Part shown: positions 14,985-47,391 of the stretch, one piece after another
How positions within the stretch are numbered: position 1 is the stretch's first letter
How the letters are laid out: each line of letters begins with the position of its first letter
The notes under the pieces: generated by a model
What the model was told of the DNA's origin: nothing
What the model saw: only the letters and a program-made list of their open reading frames with translations
The model's database searches: none
DNA from: Escherichia coli
GTDB lineage: Bacteria > Pseudomonadota > Gammaproteobacteria > Enterobacterales > Enterobacteriaceae
Assembly (NCBI RefSeq): GCF_030384885.1
Contig: NZ_CP128613.1
Strand: one strand, 5' to 3'
DNA length: 64,000 bases
Translations under genes and position numbers: made by a program

Positions 14985-15437
14985 TTAGTGTTGCGGTTTA
15001 TATCGCATATGAAAATTAGTAAACCACGCTCCCCGGCATTCAACGCGCTGCTGCTTAACTGTCTGAAAACCATAACGTTCAAAAAAGGGTTTTGCGGTTA
15101 TGCTGGCATCTACCGTAAGTTCGGATTCAGACTTAATCAAAGGTTTTAACAAAGCGCTGGCAACCCCGCAGCGGTTGTATTTCGGATCAACAAATAACAT
15201 ATCGATATAATGCTCAATGCAGGTAATAAAGCCGACCAGTTGTGTATTAATAACCGCAACCCGCACTTGTGATTTCGCGAGTTTCTCTTTCCATCGATGT
15301 TCATCAATCTGCGCCCAGGCGGCAATTTGTTGTGGTGAATAATGCTGACTAGCGGTCATCGTAACCGCTCTAATAAAAATAGCGCATAGTTGCTGAAAAT
15401 CGCCAGGCTGATAGTTCCTTATTTGTATATTATTCAT
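14985..15437 (-). CDS. yafP: GNAT-family N-acetyltransferase YafP
   Basis: 150 aa, [17 protein letters not shown]...; 4-nt overlap with the dinB stop. Confidence 0.85.
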
Positions 15438-16489
15438 AATCCCAGCACCAGTTGTCTTTCCATTTGCGGATCAAGCAACGTCACATGCAGCCCCACCAGT
15501 CGCACACCGCGCCCGCCACGGCGTTCATCCCAGGTTTTACGCGCAGTGGCGATCAAGTCAGCTTTATTCAGCCGCGGCCAGACGTGTTCCTGGGTGGTTT
15601 GCTGAAAATCGTCGAACTTTAATTTCACCCCCTGGCGGGCAATCAGTAAATCAGGTTTTACCTTTGCCAGACGACGTTCAAGTTCCGGGTACAACCGCTC
15701 GATGATCGCTTCACATTCAGACCAGTGATGAATATCTTCCGCCATCGTGCGTTCTACACCGACGGATTTTCGCAACCTTTCGCTGTTAACGTCGCGCTCG
15801 TCAATGCCCTGACTACGCTCCCACAAAATGCGGCCAAATTTGCCAAAGCGTTTAAGCAATGTCACCAGATCACACTTTTGTACATCGCCGCAGGTTCGTA
15901 GCCCCATCGCTTCCAGTTTTGCCGCCGAGACTTTGCCGACACCGGGAATTTTTGCCAGCGGTAAGGTTTGCAGAAATGCCGGAACTTCTGCTGGCGTAAT
16001 CACAAACTGACCGTTGGGTTTATTCATGTCTGAGGCGATTTTGGCGAGAAACTTGACCGGCGCAACGCCCGCAGACGCCGTCAGTTGCAGCTCGTTGAAG
16101 ATCGTCTGGCGGATTTCCTGAGCGATAAGGGTCGCAGAGCCGTGGCAATGGACACTATCGGTGACGTCGAGATAGGCTTCATCCAGTGACAGCGGCTCAA
16201 TACGCGATGTGTAGCGAGAGAAGATTTCGCGGATATGATTTGACGCTTCTTTGTAGGCGTCAAAGCGCCCTGGAAGCAAGGTGAGATGCGGACACAGTTT
16301 GAGCGCCATGCCGGTTGGCATTGCGCTACGCACGCCAAATTTACGCGCAGGATAATTGGCGGTGCTGATCACCCCCCGGCGTTCGCGGCTGCCGCCAATA
16401 GCAATAGGGATATCGCGCAGGGCGGGATTGTCGCGCATCTCCACCGCGGCGAAAAAGCAGTCCATATCCACATGAATGATTTTACGCAT
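15434..16489 (-). CDS. dinB: DNA polymerase IV (Y-family translesion polymerase)
   Basis: 351 aa, [33 protein letters not shown]... Confidence 0.95.
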
Positions 16490-16559: not shown

Positions 16560-17138
16560 TTAACGCGTTCGCTGCGAAAGCACCTGCTGCTTATCCAGCT
16601 TTTTCACCAACGGCTGCACCACTTTATCGCCATGCTGACCAAAATATTGATACAACGTATCGGACGCGCTTTTGGTGAGCACCATAATCTCAATGCGCCG
16701 ATTGCCCGCGCTTTGTGGATTTTTGGCATCCAGCAGCATCTGGTCCGCCATTGCGCTCACCCGCGCTTCGCCCTGTAACACCGGCTGCAACTGGCGGTCC
16801 ACCGCGCCGCCGGAAAGTGCGGTGCGTTTGTCCAGCATCTGCGTGAGCGCCGTACCCTGCGCCTGCCCGCTCTTACGCTGGCTATGACGATAATCGAGCA
16901 ATTGCTGCTCCAGTTGCCCGAGATAGTGATCCGCCTGCTGCAACGTGGTGAGCTGATCGTTAAGCTGCACGCTGTAACGCTGCGGGCGAGTGGTAATCAG
17001 CGGCGAGGCCGGATATTCACTCGCCGTCGCCGGGAGCTTTTGCCGCACCGCCTGAGTGGGCGCAACGGTTGACGACGATACCGCAGCGCTATGCGCGCCG
17101 CCGGTGGCGAGTGATGAAGATGTAAGTCCGACCTGCAT
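16560..17138 (-). pseudogene. lafU: Remnant of lateral-flagellar MotB-like gene (lafU); only the C-terminal OmpA-like tail is recognisable
   Basis: 192-aa ORF ending ...AKNPQSAGNRRIEIMVL (OmpA/MotB tail) but N-terminal region low-complexity with no TM anchor; sits between lfgL and dinB where the laf cluster would be. Confidence 0.4.
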
Positions 17139-42347: not shown

Positions 42348-43476
42348 CAGCAGCGAAGAAAAAACAGAGAAACCCTCGGCGCAAAAGCTGCGTAAAGCGC
42401 GTGAAGAGGGACAACTGCCGCGCTCAAAGGATATAGGGCTGGCGGCGAGCCTGTTTGCGGCGTTTGTGGTGATCTCCAGCAGCTTCCCGTGGTATGCCGA
42501 TTTTGTACGCGAGAGTTTTATCAGCGTGCATCAGTACGCGCAGGAGATTAATAACCCGGAGGTGATCGGCCAGTTTCTGCGCCATCACCTGTTAATTCTC
42601 GGCAAGTTTATTCTCACCTTGCTACCGATGCCCGCCGCCGCGCTGCTCTCTTCGCTGGTGCCCGGTGGCTGGCTGTTCTTGCCAAAAAAAATCCTCCCGG
42701 ATTTCAGCAAAATCAGTCCGTTAAAAGGGATTGGGCGGCTGTTCTCCAGTGAACATCTTGCGGAAACAGGCAAGATGACGGCGAAGTCGGTGGTGGTGCT
42801 GGTGATGCTGTGGATTAGCCTGCGCAATAACTTTGCCGCCTTCCTCGGCCTGCAAGCGCTGCCGTTCAAACTGGCGATGAATGAGGGTTTGTCGCTCTAC
42901 GCCAGCGTGATGCGCAACTTTGTCATCCTGTTTATTTTCTTCGCGCTTATCGACGTGCCGCTGGCGAAAGCCCTGTTCACCAAAGGGCTGAAGATGACTA
43001 AGCAGGAGCTGAAAGAAGAGTACAAAAATCAGGAAGGCAAGCCGGAAGTGAAGGCGCGCGTGCGGCGGCTGCAACGGCAACTGGCGATGGGGCAAATTCG
43101 CAAAGTGGTGCCGAAAGCCAACGTGGTGATCACCAACCCGACCCACTACGCCGTGGCGTTGCAGTATGACCAGTCACGCGCCGCCGCGCCGTTTGTGGTG
43201 GCAAAAGGTACCGATGAAATCGCCCTCTATATTCGTCAGGTCGCCACTGAAAATCAGGTGGAAGTGGTCGAGTTCCCGCGACTGGCGCGCTCGGTTTACT
43301 ACACCACCCAGGTGAATCAGCAAATTCCGTTTCAGCTTTACCGGGCCATCGCCCACGTTCTGACCTACGTCCTGCAAATGAAACACTGGCGCGACGGCGC
43401 ACAGCCGCGCCCGGCTCTGAACAGACATATTTCCATTCCCAAAGAGGTGCTTAAACTGGATGGCGAAAACAACTAA
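42337..43476 (+). CDS. lfhB: Flagellar export apparatus switch protein (FlhB homologue), Flag-2
   Basis: 379 aa with NPTH autocleavage motif (VVITNPTHYAVAL). Confidence 0.9.
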   Translation: MADSSSEEKTEKPSAQKLRKAREEGQLPRSKDIGLAASLFAAFVVISSSFPWYADFVRESFISVHQYAQEINNPEVIGQFLRHHLLILGKFILTLLPMPAAALLSSLVPGGWLFLPKKILPDFSKISPLKGIGRLFSSEHLAETGKMTAKSVVVLVMLWISLRNNFAAFLGLQALPFKLAMNEGLSLYASVMRNFVILFIFFALIDVPLAKALFTKGLKMTKQELKEEYKNQEGKPEVKARVRRLQRQLAMGQIRKVVPKANVVITNPTHYAVALQYDQSRAAAPFVVAKGTDEIALYIRQVATENQVEVVEFPRLARSVYYTTQVNQQIPFQLYRAIAHVLTYVLQMKHWRDGAQPRPALNRHISIPKEVLKLDGENN

Positions 43477-45553
43477 ATCGTTCCTCGCGCTACTGCGCGG
43501 CGGCAATCTCGGCGTGCCGCTGGTGATCTTGTGTATTCTGGCGATGGTTATTTTGCCGCTGCCGCCTGCGCTGCTGGATATTCTGTTCACCTTCAACATT
43601 GTGCTGGCGGTGATGGTGCTGCTGGTGGCGGTGTCGGCGAAACGTCCGCTGGAATTCAGCCTGTTCCCGACTATTTTGCTGATCACCACCTTAATGCGCC
43701 TGACGCTTAACGTTGCTTCTACGCGCGTGGTGCTGCTGCACGGGCATCTCGGCGCGGGCGCAGCGGGTAAGGTGATTGAGTCGTTTGGTCAGGTGGTGAT
43801 TGGCGGCAACTTTGTCGTCGGTTTCGTGGTGTTTATCATCCTGATGATCATCAACTTTATTGTCGTCACCAAAGGGGCCGAGCGTATTTCCGAGGTTTCT
43901 GCCCGCTTTACCCTAGACGCGATGCCCGGCAAGCAAATGGCGATTGACGCCGATCTTAACGCCGGGTTGATCAACCAGGCGCAGGCGCAGACCCGCCGCA
44001 AAGATGTTGCCAGCGAGGCCGATTTCTACGGCGCGATGGACGGGGCATCGAAGTTTGTGCGCGGGGATGCCATCGCCGGGATGATGATTCTGGCGATCAA
44101 CCTGATTGGCGGCGTTTGTATCGGGATCTTCAAATACAACCTGAGCGCCGATGCCGCCTTCCAGCAGTATGTGCTGATGACCATCGGTGACGGGCTGGTA
44201 GCGCAGATCCCGTCCCTGCTGCTCTCTACCGCGGCAGCGATTATCGTCACCCGCGTCAGCGACAACGGCGATATCGCCCATGACGTGCGCCATCAGTTGC
44301 TGGCAAGCCCGTCGGTGCTCTACACCGCCACCGGGATTATGTTCGTGCTGGCGGTGGTGCCGGGAATGCCGCACTTCCCGTTCCTGATGTTCAGCGCCTT
44401 GCTTGGCTTTACCGGCTGGCGAATGAGCAAACGCCCGCAGGCGGCGGAGGCGGAAGAGAAAAGCCTCGAAACGCTGACCCGCACAATCACTGAAACCAGC
44501 GAGCAACAGGTCAGTTGGGAAACCATTCCGCTGATCGAGCCCATCAGTTTAAGCCTCGGTTACAAGCTGGTGGCGCTGGTGGACAAAGCGCAGGGCAACC
44601 CGCTCACCCAGCGTATTCGCGGCGTGCGGCAGGTGATTTCCGACGGCAACGGCGTGCTGCTGCCGGAGATCCGTATTCGCGAAAACTTCCGCCTCAAGCC
44701 CAGCCAGTACGCCATTTTCATCAACGGCATTAAGGCTGATGAAGCTGATATTCCGGCGGATAAACTGATGGCGTTGCCCTCCAGCGAAACCTACGGCGAG
44801 ATAGACGGCGTGCTGGGGAACGACCCGGCGTACGGGATGCCGGTCACCTGGATTCAGCCCGCGCAGAAGGCGAAGGCGCTGAATATGGGGTATCAGGTGA
44901 TCGACAGCGCCAGCGTGATTGCTACCCATGTTAATAAGATTGTGCGCAGCTATATTCCTGATTTGTTTAACTATGACGACATCACGCAGTTGCATAACCG
45001 TTTGTCGTCAATGGCACCGCGCCTGGCAGAGGATTTGAGTGCGGCGCTGAATTACAGCCAGTTGCTGAAAGTGTACCGGGCACTACTGACCGAAGGCGTT
45101 TCCCTGCGCGATATCGTCACCATCGCCACCGTGCTGGTCGCCAGTAGCACCGTCACCAAAGATCATATTCTGCTGGCGGCCGATGTGCGCCTGGCACTGC
45201 GGCGCAGCATTACCCATCCGTTCGTTCGCAAGCAGGAGCTGACGGTGTATACGCTGAATAATGAGCTGGAAAACCTGCTGTCCAACGTGGTGAATCAGGC
45301 GCAACAGGCTGGCAAAGTGATGCTCGATAGCGTGCCGGTGGACCCGAATATGCTCAACCAGTTCCAGAACACGATGCCGCAGGTGAAAGAGCAGATGAAA
45401 GCGGCAGGGAAAGACCCGGTGCTGCTGGTGCCGCCGCAGTTGCGCCCTTTGCTGGCGCGTTATGCGAGGTTGTTTGCGCCGGGGTTGCATGTGCTGTCGT
45501 ATAACGAAGTGCCGGACGAGCTGGAGTTGAAGATTATGGGGGCGTTGAGTTGA
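43460..45553 (+). CDS. lfhA: Flagellar export apparatus gate protein (FlhA homologue), Flag-2, full length
   Basis: 697 aa; N-terminal TM domain, conserved FHIPx-like region and cytoplasmic C-domain. Confidence 0.9.
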   Translation: MAKTTKSFLALLRGGNLGVPLVILCILAMVILPLPPALLDILFTFNIVLAVMVLLVAVSAKRPLEFSLFPTILLITTLMRLTLNVASTRVVLLHGHLGAGAAGKVIESFGQVVIGGNFVVGFVVFIILMIINFIVVTKGAERISEVSARFTLDAMPGKQMAIDADLNAGLINQAQAQTRRKDVASEADFYGAMDGASKFVRGDAIAGMMILAINLIGGVCIGIFKYNLSADAAFQQYVLMTIGDGLVAQIPSLLLSTAAAIIVTRVSDNGDIAHDVRHQLLASPSVLYTATGIMFVLAVVPGMPHFPFLMFSALLGFTGWRMSKRPQAAEAEEKSLETLTRTITETSEQQVSWETIPLIEPISLSLGYKLVALVDKAQGNPLTQRIRGVRQVISDGNGVLLPEIRIRENFRLKPSQYAIFINGIKADEADIPADKLMALPSSETYGEIDGVLGNDPAYGMPVTWIQPAQKAKALNMGYQVIDSASVIATHVNKIVRSYIPDLFNYDDITQLHNRLSSMAPRLAEDLSAALNYSQLLKVYRALLTEGVSLRDIVTIATVLVASSTVTKDHILLAADVRLALRRSITHPFVRKQELTVYTLNNELENLLSNVVNQAQQAGKVMLDSVPVDPNMLNQFQNTMPQVKEQMKAAGKDPVLLVPPQLRPLLARYARLFAPGLHVLSYNEVPDELELKIMGALS

Positions 45554-45636
45554 TTGAGGATTCTTTTCCATACTTTGCAGCACCTGACACCATTAATTGA
45601 CGTCACACTGCAAAGAGACTACGATGACACCATACA

Positions 45637-45936
45637 ATGACGTCATGGATTGATAGTATGATTAAGGTCAGCGCGCTAGGCTCTCGTCATAGAAAAACAT
45701 TCGACGATGTAATGACGGAGCCGCCAAAATCTGGAATTAAATGGGATGATGTTGTTGCTCTCATTAAAGCGGTGGGTGGCTCAATAAAAAATAACAACGG
45801 CTCCAGACGAAAATTTCAGATTGGAACGACCAAATTCAGCACACATGAGCCGCATCCAAAGAATGTGATGGATAAAGGCGCAGTAGCAGGTCTTAAGGAG
45901 TGGTTTGTTAACTGTGTAGGGGTAGATTATGAATAA
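45637..45936 (+). CDS. HicA-like (YcfA fold) putative mRNA-interferase toxin
   Basis: 99 aa; ...KWDDVVALIKAVGGSIKNNNGSRRKFQIGTTKFSTHEPHPKNVMDKGAVAGLKEW resembles the HicA helix-strand-HxP pattern; 8-bp overlap with the downstream partner. Confidence 0.5.
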   Translation: MTSWIDSMIKVSALGSRHRKTFDDVMTEPPKSGIKWDDVVALIKAVGGSIKNNNGSRRKFQIGTTKFSTHEPHPKNVMDKGAVAGLKEWFVNCVGVDYE

Positions 45937-46285
45937 AGCATCGAACATTATCACAATTAAAGGTCAACCAGCCGCAGTGACATTTGAAGCCGATATCAAC
46001 GCATTTCGCGGCAAGTTCCTCAATGTAAACGGTTATTGTGACTTTGTAGCCACAAGTATTGAGGCATTATATCGTGAAGGCGAAAGCGCTCTGGATGAGT
46101 GGATGGCGGATTGTGAAGAGGACGGTATTGCCCCTTTTCGTGAAGAAGAAGAGCAAAAACGCCTGACGCTTCGTGTGCCGCATCACATCGATTCGCGGCT
46201 GACCATCGTCGCCAGACAACATTCCATTTCAAAAAACCAGCTCATTATTGATGTCTTAGAACGTGAGTTTTCAGCCCAGATGTAA
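45929..46285 (+). CDS. HicB-like putative antitoxin with C-terminal ribbon-helix-helix DNA-binding tail
   Basis: 118 aa; acidic linker then RLTLRVPHHIDSRLTIVARQHSISKNQLIIDVLEREF (RHH-like). Confidence 0.5.
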   Translation: MNKASNIITIKGQPAAVTFEADINAFRGKFLNVNGYCDFVATSIEALYREGESALDEWMADCEEDGIAPFREEEEQKRLTLRVPHHIDSRLTIVARQHSISKNQLIIDVLEREFSAQM

Positions 46286-46318
46286 ACAGGTCGGATGCCG
46301 CGTGGCATCCGACCTGTT
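46285..46318. terminator. Perfect hairpin between the HicB-like gene and yafL (bidirectional)
   Basis: AACAGGTCGGATGCCGCGTGGCATCCGACCTGTT. Confidence 0.6.
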
Positions 46319-46341
46319 GCCAGTTCGTCAATATTACCCAT

Positions 46342-47100
46342 TTACAAAATCGTCTCTTCCGTCAAAATCCGCCGCGCGCCTAAAAAATGATCATGCCAGA
46401 AAGGTTCAGCTAACCGACTTACCCGAATGGTTTCCCCGGTGCGCGGCGACTCGATAAACTGACCGTCTCCCAGATACACGCCCATATGGTCGGCAATCTC
46501 GCGGCTGTGAATATGGAAAAACAGCAAATCTCCCCGGCGCAGGTCGTTATTTGCCACAATGGTTGCCCGACGGTAGTGATACATCTCATTGGCCGTGCGC
46601 GGGAGTTTCGCCTCGAGGATCTTGTTGTAGGCATAAAAAACCAACCCGCTACAGTCGAAGCCTTGATCGGGTCGCGTGCCGCCCCAGACGTATGGCTTGC
46701 CAAGCTGCTGCTCCAGACGGTGAATCGCCACTTCGGTGATATTATGCAGGTGGTTACTGCTGAGGAAATGATTGTTTTCCGCCAGCGCCTGCCAGCGTCT
46801 GTCACTCGCCTTGAGCGGCGCAGGAAACCATTCTGGATGCTGTTTTATCTGTTCGCGGTTGTGTTGCCGCAGTGCCCTTCTGCTTTCGGCATTGCCTTCC
46901 ACAATATAGCTGGCCTGCTTTTTCAGATGAATTTGGTACTGTTTTAATAAACGCGCACGGTTTTGCATCCGCTGGCGGGCGGCGTAGCTGAAAGAGATAT
47001 GTGATGTGGTGGCGCTGGCGAGTAAAGGGAGCAAAACGCATAACGAAAACACGCCTGGATGCAGAAATCTGCCGAGCAAGAACGAAGACATGAAGGACAT
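46342..47100 (-). CDS. yafL: NlpC/P60-family peptidoglycan endopeptidase lipoprotein YafL
   Basis: 252 aa with signal peptide; C/H/H catalytic pattern (DCSGLV...H). Confidence 0.8.
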   Translation of the reverse strand: MSFMSSFLLGRFLHPGVFSLCVLLPLLASATTSHISFSYAARQRMQNRARLLKQYQIHLKKQASYIVEGNAESRRALRQHNREQIKQHPEWFPAPLKASDRRWQALAENNHFLSSNHLHNITEVAIHRLEQQLGKPYVWGGTRPDQGFDCSGLVFYAYNKILEAKLPRTANEMYHYRRATIVANNDLRRGDLLFFHIHSREIADHMGVYLGDGQFIESPRTGETIRVSRLAEPFWHDHFLGARRILTEETIL

Positions 47101-47391
47101 AAACCGGCTGAATGAAGGTGAGAATTTTAAAAGACCGGAGGAGTAAACGGGATTATTAATTGCTTATTTGCATATTACTATTGAGGTTTCATAATCTTAG
47201 GAAATAAATGATACATGCGCTTTTCGGACTAATGAAAACTGCCCTTGTGCTAAATTTGTAAACCCTGCGCCGACAGGCTTGCGTAAAACTCTTTTGGTGA
47301 TAATGTGAGCCTTCCAAATCCAGACTATTCCGATTTGGGATCCATTTTGCCGTCCTGGCGTGTGTAACCGTTTTATCAAGGAATAAGCAGT

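Follow-up and report, generated by a model that had tools for sequence, protein, structure and literature searches.

A probable HicAB-family toxin–antitoxin operon, with arginine at the catalytic histidine position of its HicA, at a dimorphic site between lfhA and yafL of Escherichia coli

In the 64,000-nucleotide stretch of Escherichia coli DNA analyzed here (the window), two small open reading frames lie between the Flag-2 flhA homologue and yafL, and an earlier note had read them as a HicAB-like toxin–antitoxin pair. This raises the questions of whether the two frames form such an operon, whether its toxin would use the mechanism known for HicA, and how the site is occupied in other E. coli lineages. 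The layout described in that note was confirmed: ORF1 (45637..45936, +, 99 aa) and ORF2 (45929..46285, +, 118 aa) run in the same direction, overlap by 8 bp (45929–45936), and lie in the interval from the stop codon of full-length lfhA to that of yafL, the right flank being annotated as yafL in the matching genomes. The locus comprises the following features.

43460–45553, + strand: lfhA (Flag-2 FlhA homologue), full length, left flank (FHIPEP, 808.9 bits)
45548–46342, no strand: polymorphic cassette from the last codons of lfhA to the stop codon of yafL, with hicAB in the window and REP-rayT-REP in K-12
45658–45936, + strand: hicA, 92 aa, encoding a HicA-family protein with a dsRBD fold, from the long 'GSR / HxPHP' clade (Pfam, PHROG, AF2, Foldseek, homologue starts, RefSeq)
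45929–46285, + strand: hicB, 118 aa, with an N-terminal HicB domain (partial RNase H-like), an acidic linker, and a C-terminal ribbon-helix-helix (Pfam, PHROG, profile, AF2, Foldseek)
46342–47100, − strand: yafL (NlpC/P60 peptidase), right flank, convergent with hicAB (NLPC_P60, E 8e-33)

The characteristics of a type II toxin–antitoxin operon were all found for this pair, namely small, adjacent, and co-directional genes, their overlap, relatives on plasmids, and a patchy distribution. The pair is likely to be a chromosomal type II toxin–antitoxin operon of the HicAB family, belonging to Gerdes Class 4, in which the toxin gene comes first and HicB has a C-terminal ribbon-helix-helix (RHH).

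The earlier note had proposed an HMM search as a check on the family assignment, and in that search both the HicA and the HicB profiles scored above the Pfam gathering thresholds. ORF1, which had been called HicA/YcfA-like, passed the HicA_toxin profile (PF07927 / COG1724) with a score that barely exceeds the threshold (29.1 bits, gathering cut-off 27, residues 36–84 of the 99-aa form), and matched PHROG 8887 'toxin' (E 5e-20); the fold models agree with this reading. ORF2 matched the Pfam family HicB (PF05534) with 40.5 bits against a cut-off of 21, and PHROG 9151 'HicB-like antitoxin' over residues 6–114 (E 5e-13), and its tail matched PHROG 582 'Arc-like repressor'. For both proteins, NCBIfam gave no meaningful match, PADLOC gave no match, and BLASTP against HicA and HicB of K-12 detected no similarity; single-sequence searches of the PDB with either protein returned nothing relevant, and profiles were needed. 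Pfam, the PHROGs, the fold models, and RefSeq agree in identifying ORF1 and ORF2 as a HicAB-like pair.

For HicA, a full HMMER scan covering 1.84 billion cluster representatives yielded 359 relatives at E <= 1e-3. These are mostly 84–135 aa long and align over residues 7–85, indicating that the N-terminal extension belongs to the family. The subfamily profile matched the HicA chains 6g26 and 4c26 in the PDB at E 3e-3, and 4p78_C weakly (E 0.24). The AlphaFold (AF2) model, built on 89 relatives with a pLDDT of 96.9, consists of helix 29–38, strands 42–45, 50–55, and 58–63, and helix 73–87, preceded by an extra helix at residues 9–19, and its DSSP assignment corresponds to the dsRBD-like α1-β1-β2-β3-α2 topology. 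The top Foldseek matches of the model in the PDB were the B. pseudomallei HicA chains 6g26_F/E (probability 0.87–0.89, target-normalised TM 0.60–0.63), and the list also includes T. thermophilus HicA 1WHZ and 4c26.

The toxin had been taken to be 99 aa long, whereas the conserved start is the ATG at 45658 (MIKV...). Full-length HicA homologues are 92–93 aa long and begin with MIK, MIN, or MIQ, RefSeq (PGAP) annotates hicA with 92 aa from the ATG equivalent to 45658, and a GGA motif lies upstream of the downstream hicA ATG in all of the loci compared. The ATG at 45637 is located inside a palindromic box (operator box 4, see below), and the equivalent of this longer start in the Salmonella plasmids runs into a TGA stop codon; the 99-aa start was therefore rejected. 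From these comparisons, HicA is most likely 92 aa rather than 99 aa long. An N-terminal 'GSRH' (residues 8–11), suggested as the catalytic motif by a MAFFT alignment to GSNH of K-12 HicA, was also rejected, because Gly8 and Ser9 are unconserved, His11 is a histidine in 81 of 141 relatives, the segment forms an α-helix in the model, and the Pfam and profile alignments put the HicA domain at residues 29–77 of the 92-aa form.

For HicB, the AF2 model (pLDDT 89) contains strands at residues 7–10, 13–20, 25–30, and 38–41 and a helix at residues 44–65, followed by a low-confidence acidic linker and by the C-terminal helices 85–97 and 102–117. Both the model and the Foldseek matches exhibit the partial RNase H-like fold (β-β-β-α) at the N terminus. 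The best PDB matches of the model are B. pseudomallei HicB, E. coli HicB3, Y. pestis HicB3, TTHA0281, and K-12 HicB; the Foldseek probabilities were 1.00 for B. pseudomallei 6g26_A/B, 0.99 for 4p78_A, 0.99 for 2dsy, 0.97 for 6u0i, and 0.87 for 6hpb_B, and the rmsd for 6g1c_B was 2.6. The HicB profile (35 relatives) matched Arc (1b28, E 3.8e-4) and AmrZ (1.6e-3) in the PDB, followed by CopG and Mnt, over residues 75–116. These profile matches confirm the C-terminal RHH of HicB, and the acidic linker, EWMADCEEDGIAPFREEEEQKR, is present in the translation; both elements had been read from ORF2 in the earlier note. The family and the fold are thus directly observed for both proteins.

In the HicAs examined by experiment, the essential catalytic histidine lies at the start of β2 (H23 in E. 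coli, H24 in B. pseudomallei, H28 in Y. pestis, H36 in S. pneumoniae, and H24 in N. gonorrhoeae). In the window HicA, this position is occupied by Arg50. The subfamily consensus 'GSr' aligns with 'GSH' of Y. pestis HicA3 and with 'GSA' of 6g26, which we read as the H24A variant, since the literature places H24 there. Arginine is found at position 50 in 112 of 141 relatives, and GSR is the clade consensus. Gly48, which is kept in 138 of the 141, aligns with the glycine of GS(H) and corresponds to the conserved glycine of the β1–β2 turn (Gly22 of B. pseudomallei and N. gonorrhoeae HicA). Given Arg50, the sequence does not assure that HicA would be an RNase toxin acting by the textbook mechanism.

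Gly48, Ser49, His63, Pro65, and His66 are near-invariant among the relatives, with His63 and His66 of the HxPHP motif each being a histidine in 137 of 141. His66 is the histidine of PHP, and the equivalent H40 is dispensable in gonococcal HicA. His63, at the end of β3, aligns with Thr37 of B. pseudomallei HicA, and would lie directly across from Arg50 in the β2–β3 hairpin, according to the pairing of strands 50–55 and 58–63 in the DSSP assignment of the model rather than to distances. Among the 27 Class 4 HicAs read in Table S1 of Gerdes 2024, all 11 GSR proteins carry HxPHP, whereas none of the other 16, the GSH and GDH proteins included, possesses a histidine at the HxPHP position. The GSR proteins probably form one clade, and the combination of GSR and HxPHP is accordingly to be read as a signature, not as independent covariation. 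We tentatively raise the hypothesis, which is reasonable but on balance rather unlikely, that the 'GSR / HxPHP' HicA clade has moved its catalytic histidine, with either His63 or the trio of His63, His66, and Arg50 serving as the active site. If this were true, the clade would be a catalytic variant, so far uncharacterised, within a toxin family that is widespread, and the extra N-terminal helix would accompany it. The main text of Gerdes 2024 contains neither 'histidine' nor 'His', and no experiment on this HicAB pair or on the GSR clade, toxicity included, was found in the literature searched. The matter of RNase activity and of the catalytic residue in Arg-type HicAs concerns a whole clade (359 cluster representatives at E <= 1e-3) and not this locus alone.

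Upstream of hicA, a predicted promoter and two candidate operator units were found.

45597–45625, + strand: predicted sigma-70-like promoter, TTGACG, 17-nt spacer, TACGAT (consensus scan, 9/12 matches)
45585–45605, no strand: candidate operator unit 1, TGACACCA-TTAAT-TGACGTCA (boxes 1 and 2), a copy of a 21-nt direct repeat
45625–45645, no strand: candidate operator unit 2, TGACACCA-TACAA-TGACGTCA (boxes 3 and 4), the second copy of the 21-nt repeat

The two copies of the repeat are 40 bp apart, and each consists of TGACACCA, 5 nt, and the palindrome TGACGTCA. Box 2 overlaps the −35 hexamer; unit 2, with boxes 3 and 4, covers the ATG at 45637 as well as the expected transcription start, predicted near 45632. 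The 64-kb window contains three TGACGTCA sites, two of which are in the hicAB promoter. In two Salmonella IncFII plasmids, both units are present, 42 bp apart, with four perfect TGACGTCA boxes. In three metagenome loci, of which the HicA is 65–74% identical, the boxes are in register and the spacers are unrelated. The four-box layout is thus kept across six loci with HicA 65–100% identical, although their spacers have diverged. Other HicB proteins have been shown to repress their own operons (review), and the placement of the boxes over the −35 hexamer and the transcription start fits such autorepression by an RHH antitoxin, with HicB as the presumed binder. These comparisons suggest that the four TGACGTCA-like boxes over the promoter are probably HicB operators. 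An 8-nt perfect inverted repeat, CTTTGCAG / CTGCAAAG, at 45573–45580 and 45608–45615, brackets operator unit 1; the Salmonella plasmids do not conserve it in their promoters.

At the other end of the operon, a hairpin starts from the hicB stop codon.

46285–46318, no strand: perfect hairpin with a 15-bp stem and a 4-nt loop (arms 46285–46299 and 46304–46318)

The earlier note had described this element as a perfect bidirectional terminator hairpin. The perfect hairpin is real, with a folding energy of about −30 kcal/mol (z = −6.1 against shuffles), whereas the terminator scan at this position found 0 sites, and no T/U run follows the stem on either strand, the tail being GCCAGUUCG on the + strand and UACAUCUGG on the − strand. 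The hairpin is therefore not a canonical rho-independent terminator. The commoner allele, found in most other strains, has CCUUUUGCC, in which the 3' arm has CCTTTT where the window has CCTGTT, resulting in a 12-bp stem followed by UUUU. An Rfam search over 45300–46700 gave nothing credible.

By analogy with characterised HicAB systems, from which all of the following steps are drawn, one promoter would drive both hicA (92 aa) and hicB (118 aa), and the 8-bp overlap would couple their translation. HicA, as a small dsRBD-fold protein, would be expected to act as a ribosome-independent RNase, and the N-terminal partial RNase H-like domain of HicB would bind HicA and mask its active face. HicB would dimerise via the RHH and repress the operon by occupying the four TGACGTCA-like boxes that cover the −35 hexamer and the transcription start, and the strong hairpin 3' of hicB would probably end or stabilise the transcript.

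A comparison of this intergenic site across E. coli genomes, which the earlier note had also proposed, was carried out on 5426 complete genomes, with the following counts.

1479/5426 (27%): any hicAB or hicB-only match
1369/5426 (about a quarter): full hicAB
about 110/5426: hicB only, e.g., E. coli P31_YH1_02.21 (L003 5973–6347) and GMF054 (L004)
3564/5426 (66%): K-12-type REP-rayT-REP cassette
3326/5426: dinJ-yafQ
2834/5426: yafNO
1289/5426: lfhB/lfiR end of Flag-2
423: Flag-2 end and hicAB together
1135: hicAB (or hicB alone), yafL, and dinJ-yafQ together

In an alignment of the window, K-12, O104:H4, and one hicB-only strain, the identity between K-12 and the window extends to the last sense codon of lfhA, breaks off there, and restarts at the yafL stop codon; the cassette swap between lfhA and yafL is exact. 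The hicAB cassette is thus one allele of a dimorphic site, of which the other allele is the K-12 rayT cassette. Of 110 E. coli/Shigella genomes studied by Ton-Hoang et al. (NAR 2012; PMC3333891), 74 had tnpA_REP (rayT) between yafL and fhiA, and 24, nearly all of clade B1, had hicA and hicB in place of rayT and its BIMEs, the clusters of REP repeats on either side of rayT. The proportions observed here (66% rayT, 27% hicAB) agree with theirs.

These data also bear on three other explanations of the locus. One is that the pair is HicAB by descent, but that its HicA clade has given up canonical RNA cleavage and could be an RNA-binding protein that is non-catalytic or uses a different mechanism, so that the module would be mainly a regulator or binder and not an RNase toxin. 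The alignment of Arg50 with the catalytic histidine of both B. pseudomallei and Y. pestis HicA speaks for this explanation, as does the literature, in which every tested HicA needs that histidine, while GSR is the consensus of the clade. However, the strong conservation of the clade, including the near-invariant His63 and His66, argues against this explanation, and GSR-type hicA is always paired with hicB, both in all of the loci examined and in all of the GSR pairs read in Table S1 of Gerdes. In addition, relatives of hicAB occur on Salmonella and Yersinia plasmids, as well as in varied chromosomal contexts in metagenome contigs, and those on plasmids lie among addiction genes, the Salmonella IncFII relatives adjoining ccdAB and parA. 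The natural allele that lost the toxin and retained the antitoxin points in the same direction. An active toxin–antitoxin module usually decays via loss of the toxin, with the antitoxin being kept. In the approximately 110 genomes with this divergent allele, hicA is deleted except for its ribosome-binding site and start codon, to which hicB is joined in frame (ATGATGAAAACGCGT...). The −10 hexamer and operator unit 2 are retained, but the region of the −35 hexamer and unit 1 is replaced; compared with the window, the hicB of this allele exhibits a dS of 0.26 and a dN/dS of 0.07. We therefore consider a module of this kind distinctly improbable, although less so than the two explanations that follow.

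A second explanation sees the cassette as what is left of a mobile element, without function and in decay, trapped between two convergent genes, and would accord with the frequent decay of chromosomal toxin–antitoxin modules, with the truncated HicA variants of 61–65 aa that occur in E. coli, and with the genomes that have no hicA. This is very unlikely, given that both ORFs are intact in 1369 genomes, that the promoter boxes are conserved, and that synonymous substitutions greatly exceed non-synonymous ones in number. Strain MEI008 differs from the window in hicA by 11 synonymous changes and 1 non-synonymous change (dN/dS 0.02), and within E. coli the dN/dS is 0.02–0.11 for hicA and 0.07–0.09 for hicB, which is a direct observation of purifying selection. 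The remaining explanation concerns the 34-nt hairpin, which might be a REP/BIME-type dispersed repeat derived from the rayT system and thus lie outside the hicAB operon. REP sequences do flank the alternative rayT allele, and the CGGATGC core of the hairpin is one that we take to resemble REP. However, whereas a REP/BIME element has many copies per genome, a 771-bp query containing the hairpin matched exactly one place per genome, and the REP-bearing rayT query matched a median of 29 places. Moreover, no BIME trace was reported in the hicAB strains (Ton-Hoang 2012, PMC3333891), and this origin of the hairpin is hardly credible. The reading of the cassette as a HicAB toxin–antitoxin operon is thus preferred.

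The hicAB locus and its interpretation are already known. RefSeq WP_000598759.1 / WP_001030482.1 are the same genes at the same site and are already named HicA/HicB; Table S1 of Gerdes (mBio 2024) catalogues E. coli UIV62394.1/UIV62393.1, in which HicA differs from the window protein at 1 residue and HicB at 2, as a Class 4 hicAB with RHH; and the replacement of rayT was reported by Ton-Hoang 2012 (PMC3333891). The DNA of strain 2013C-4282 is 100% identical to the window over 771 bp, no essential difference from the published E. coli hicAB between yafL and fhiA/lfhA was found, and the locus itself adds little beyond published and annotated knowledge. The 'plasmid' label carried by E. coli matches in PLSDB and Gerdes is probably unreliable, the records being 0.4–4.9 Mb long, the size of a chromosome or a chromosome fragment.

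Among the characterised systems, the B. pseudomallei HicAB (6G26, 4C26) shares with the window pair the toxin-first order, the dsRBD-fold HicA, and a HicB whose N-domain has the partial RNase H-like fold and whose C terminus is an RHH. In contrast, B. pseudomallei HicA is about 60 aa long, with the catalytic His24 in GSH and Thr37 at the position of His63, whereas the window HicA is 92 aa long, with the extra N-terminal helix and Arg50; the sequence identity in the Foldseek alignments is 18% for HicA and 11% for HicB. The E. coli K-12 HicAB (b4532/b1438, PDB 6HPB) is of the same family and gene order, without BLASTP similarity as described above, but its HicB uses a helix-turn-helix (review) instead of the RHH of the window HicB, and its genes are at a different locus, at approximately 1.509 Mb. 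The Salmonella IncFII hicAB (pLG25p1, pHL21C) belongs to the same clade (GSRRKF, THQPHP) and shares the 92-aa HicA, the 8-bp overlap, and the four-box promoter; it differs in being plasmid-borne, with approximately 67% nucleotide identity, and in having a perfect TGACGTCA at all four boxes, where E. coli has TGACACCA at boxes 1 and 3.

The neighbourhood beyond the cassette also differs from that of K-12, which, in line with the earlier note, has rayT at the site and dinJ-yafQ beyond yafL. That note was likewise right that yafNO is missing next to dinB in the window, as seen from the following two genes, which have no yafNO between them, whereas K-12 has yafNO after dinB.

14985–15437: yafP, overlapping dinB by 4 bp (15434–15437)
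15434–16489: dinB, overlapping yafP by 4 bp

The window gap between yafL and dpaA (291 bp, 47101–47391) contains no dinJ-yafQ; about 190 bp of it are unrelated to the dinJ-yafQ cassette, and the shared sequence resumes near 47252. The window thus combines hicAB with a largely intact Flag-2, as do 423 of the 1369 hicAB genomes, and is devoid of dinJ-yafQ and yafNO. Several combinations of cargo were seen directly in individual genomes. The proposal that the locus swaps toxin–antitoxin cargo therefore holds for the neighbourhood, where the cargo varies by lineage, but not for the exact site, where hicAB replaces rayT plus REPs and no toxin–antitoxin module. Overall, the short stretch from dinB to dpaA is a clean example of a region in which each of three toxin–antitoxin modules and a REP transposase is found in some lineages and missing from others. 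The 5' end of yafL also differs between the alleles, being annotated with 750 or 774 nt.

In the window, Flag-2 is internally deleted at 16560–17138 (− strand), between dinB and lfgL. At the deletion, a 192-aa chimeric ORF joins approximately the first 127 residues of a hypothetical protein encoded beside flgL to the last 66 aa of LafU, and it is identical to the flgL-adjacent hypothetical protein over residues 1–86. The closest complete genome, E. coli MFDS1022581, has approximately 9.7 kb at this site, including lafU, motA, a sigma factor, fliL, fliK, fliS, fliD, and lafA, indicating that the window strain is without the lateral flagellin, stator, and sigma genes. In MFDS1022581, Flag-2 also has an insert between flgA and flgM (L010 2091–4807) that encodes a type II restriction endonuclease and a DNA cytosine methyltransferase, and the list of open reading frames suggests that this insert is absent from the window. 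In E. coli 2013C-4282 (L001 2400–3454), dinB is frameshifted and the usual lfhA-lafU deletion scar of Flag-2 is present. As its hicAB is identical to that of the window, identical cassettes occur in different Flag-2 backgrounds.
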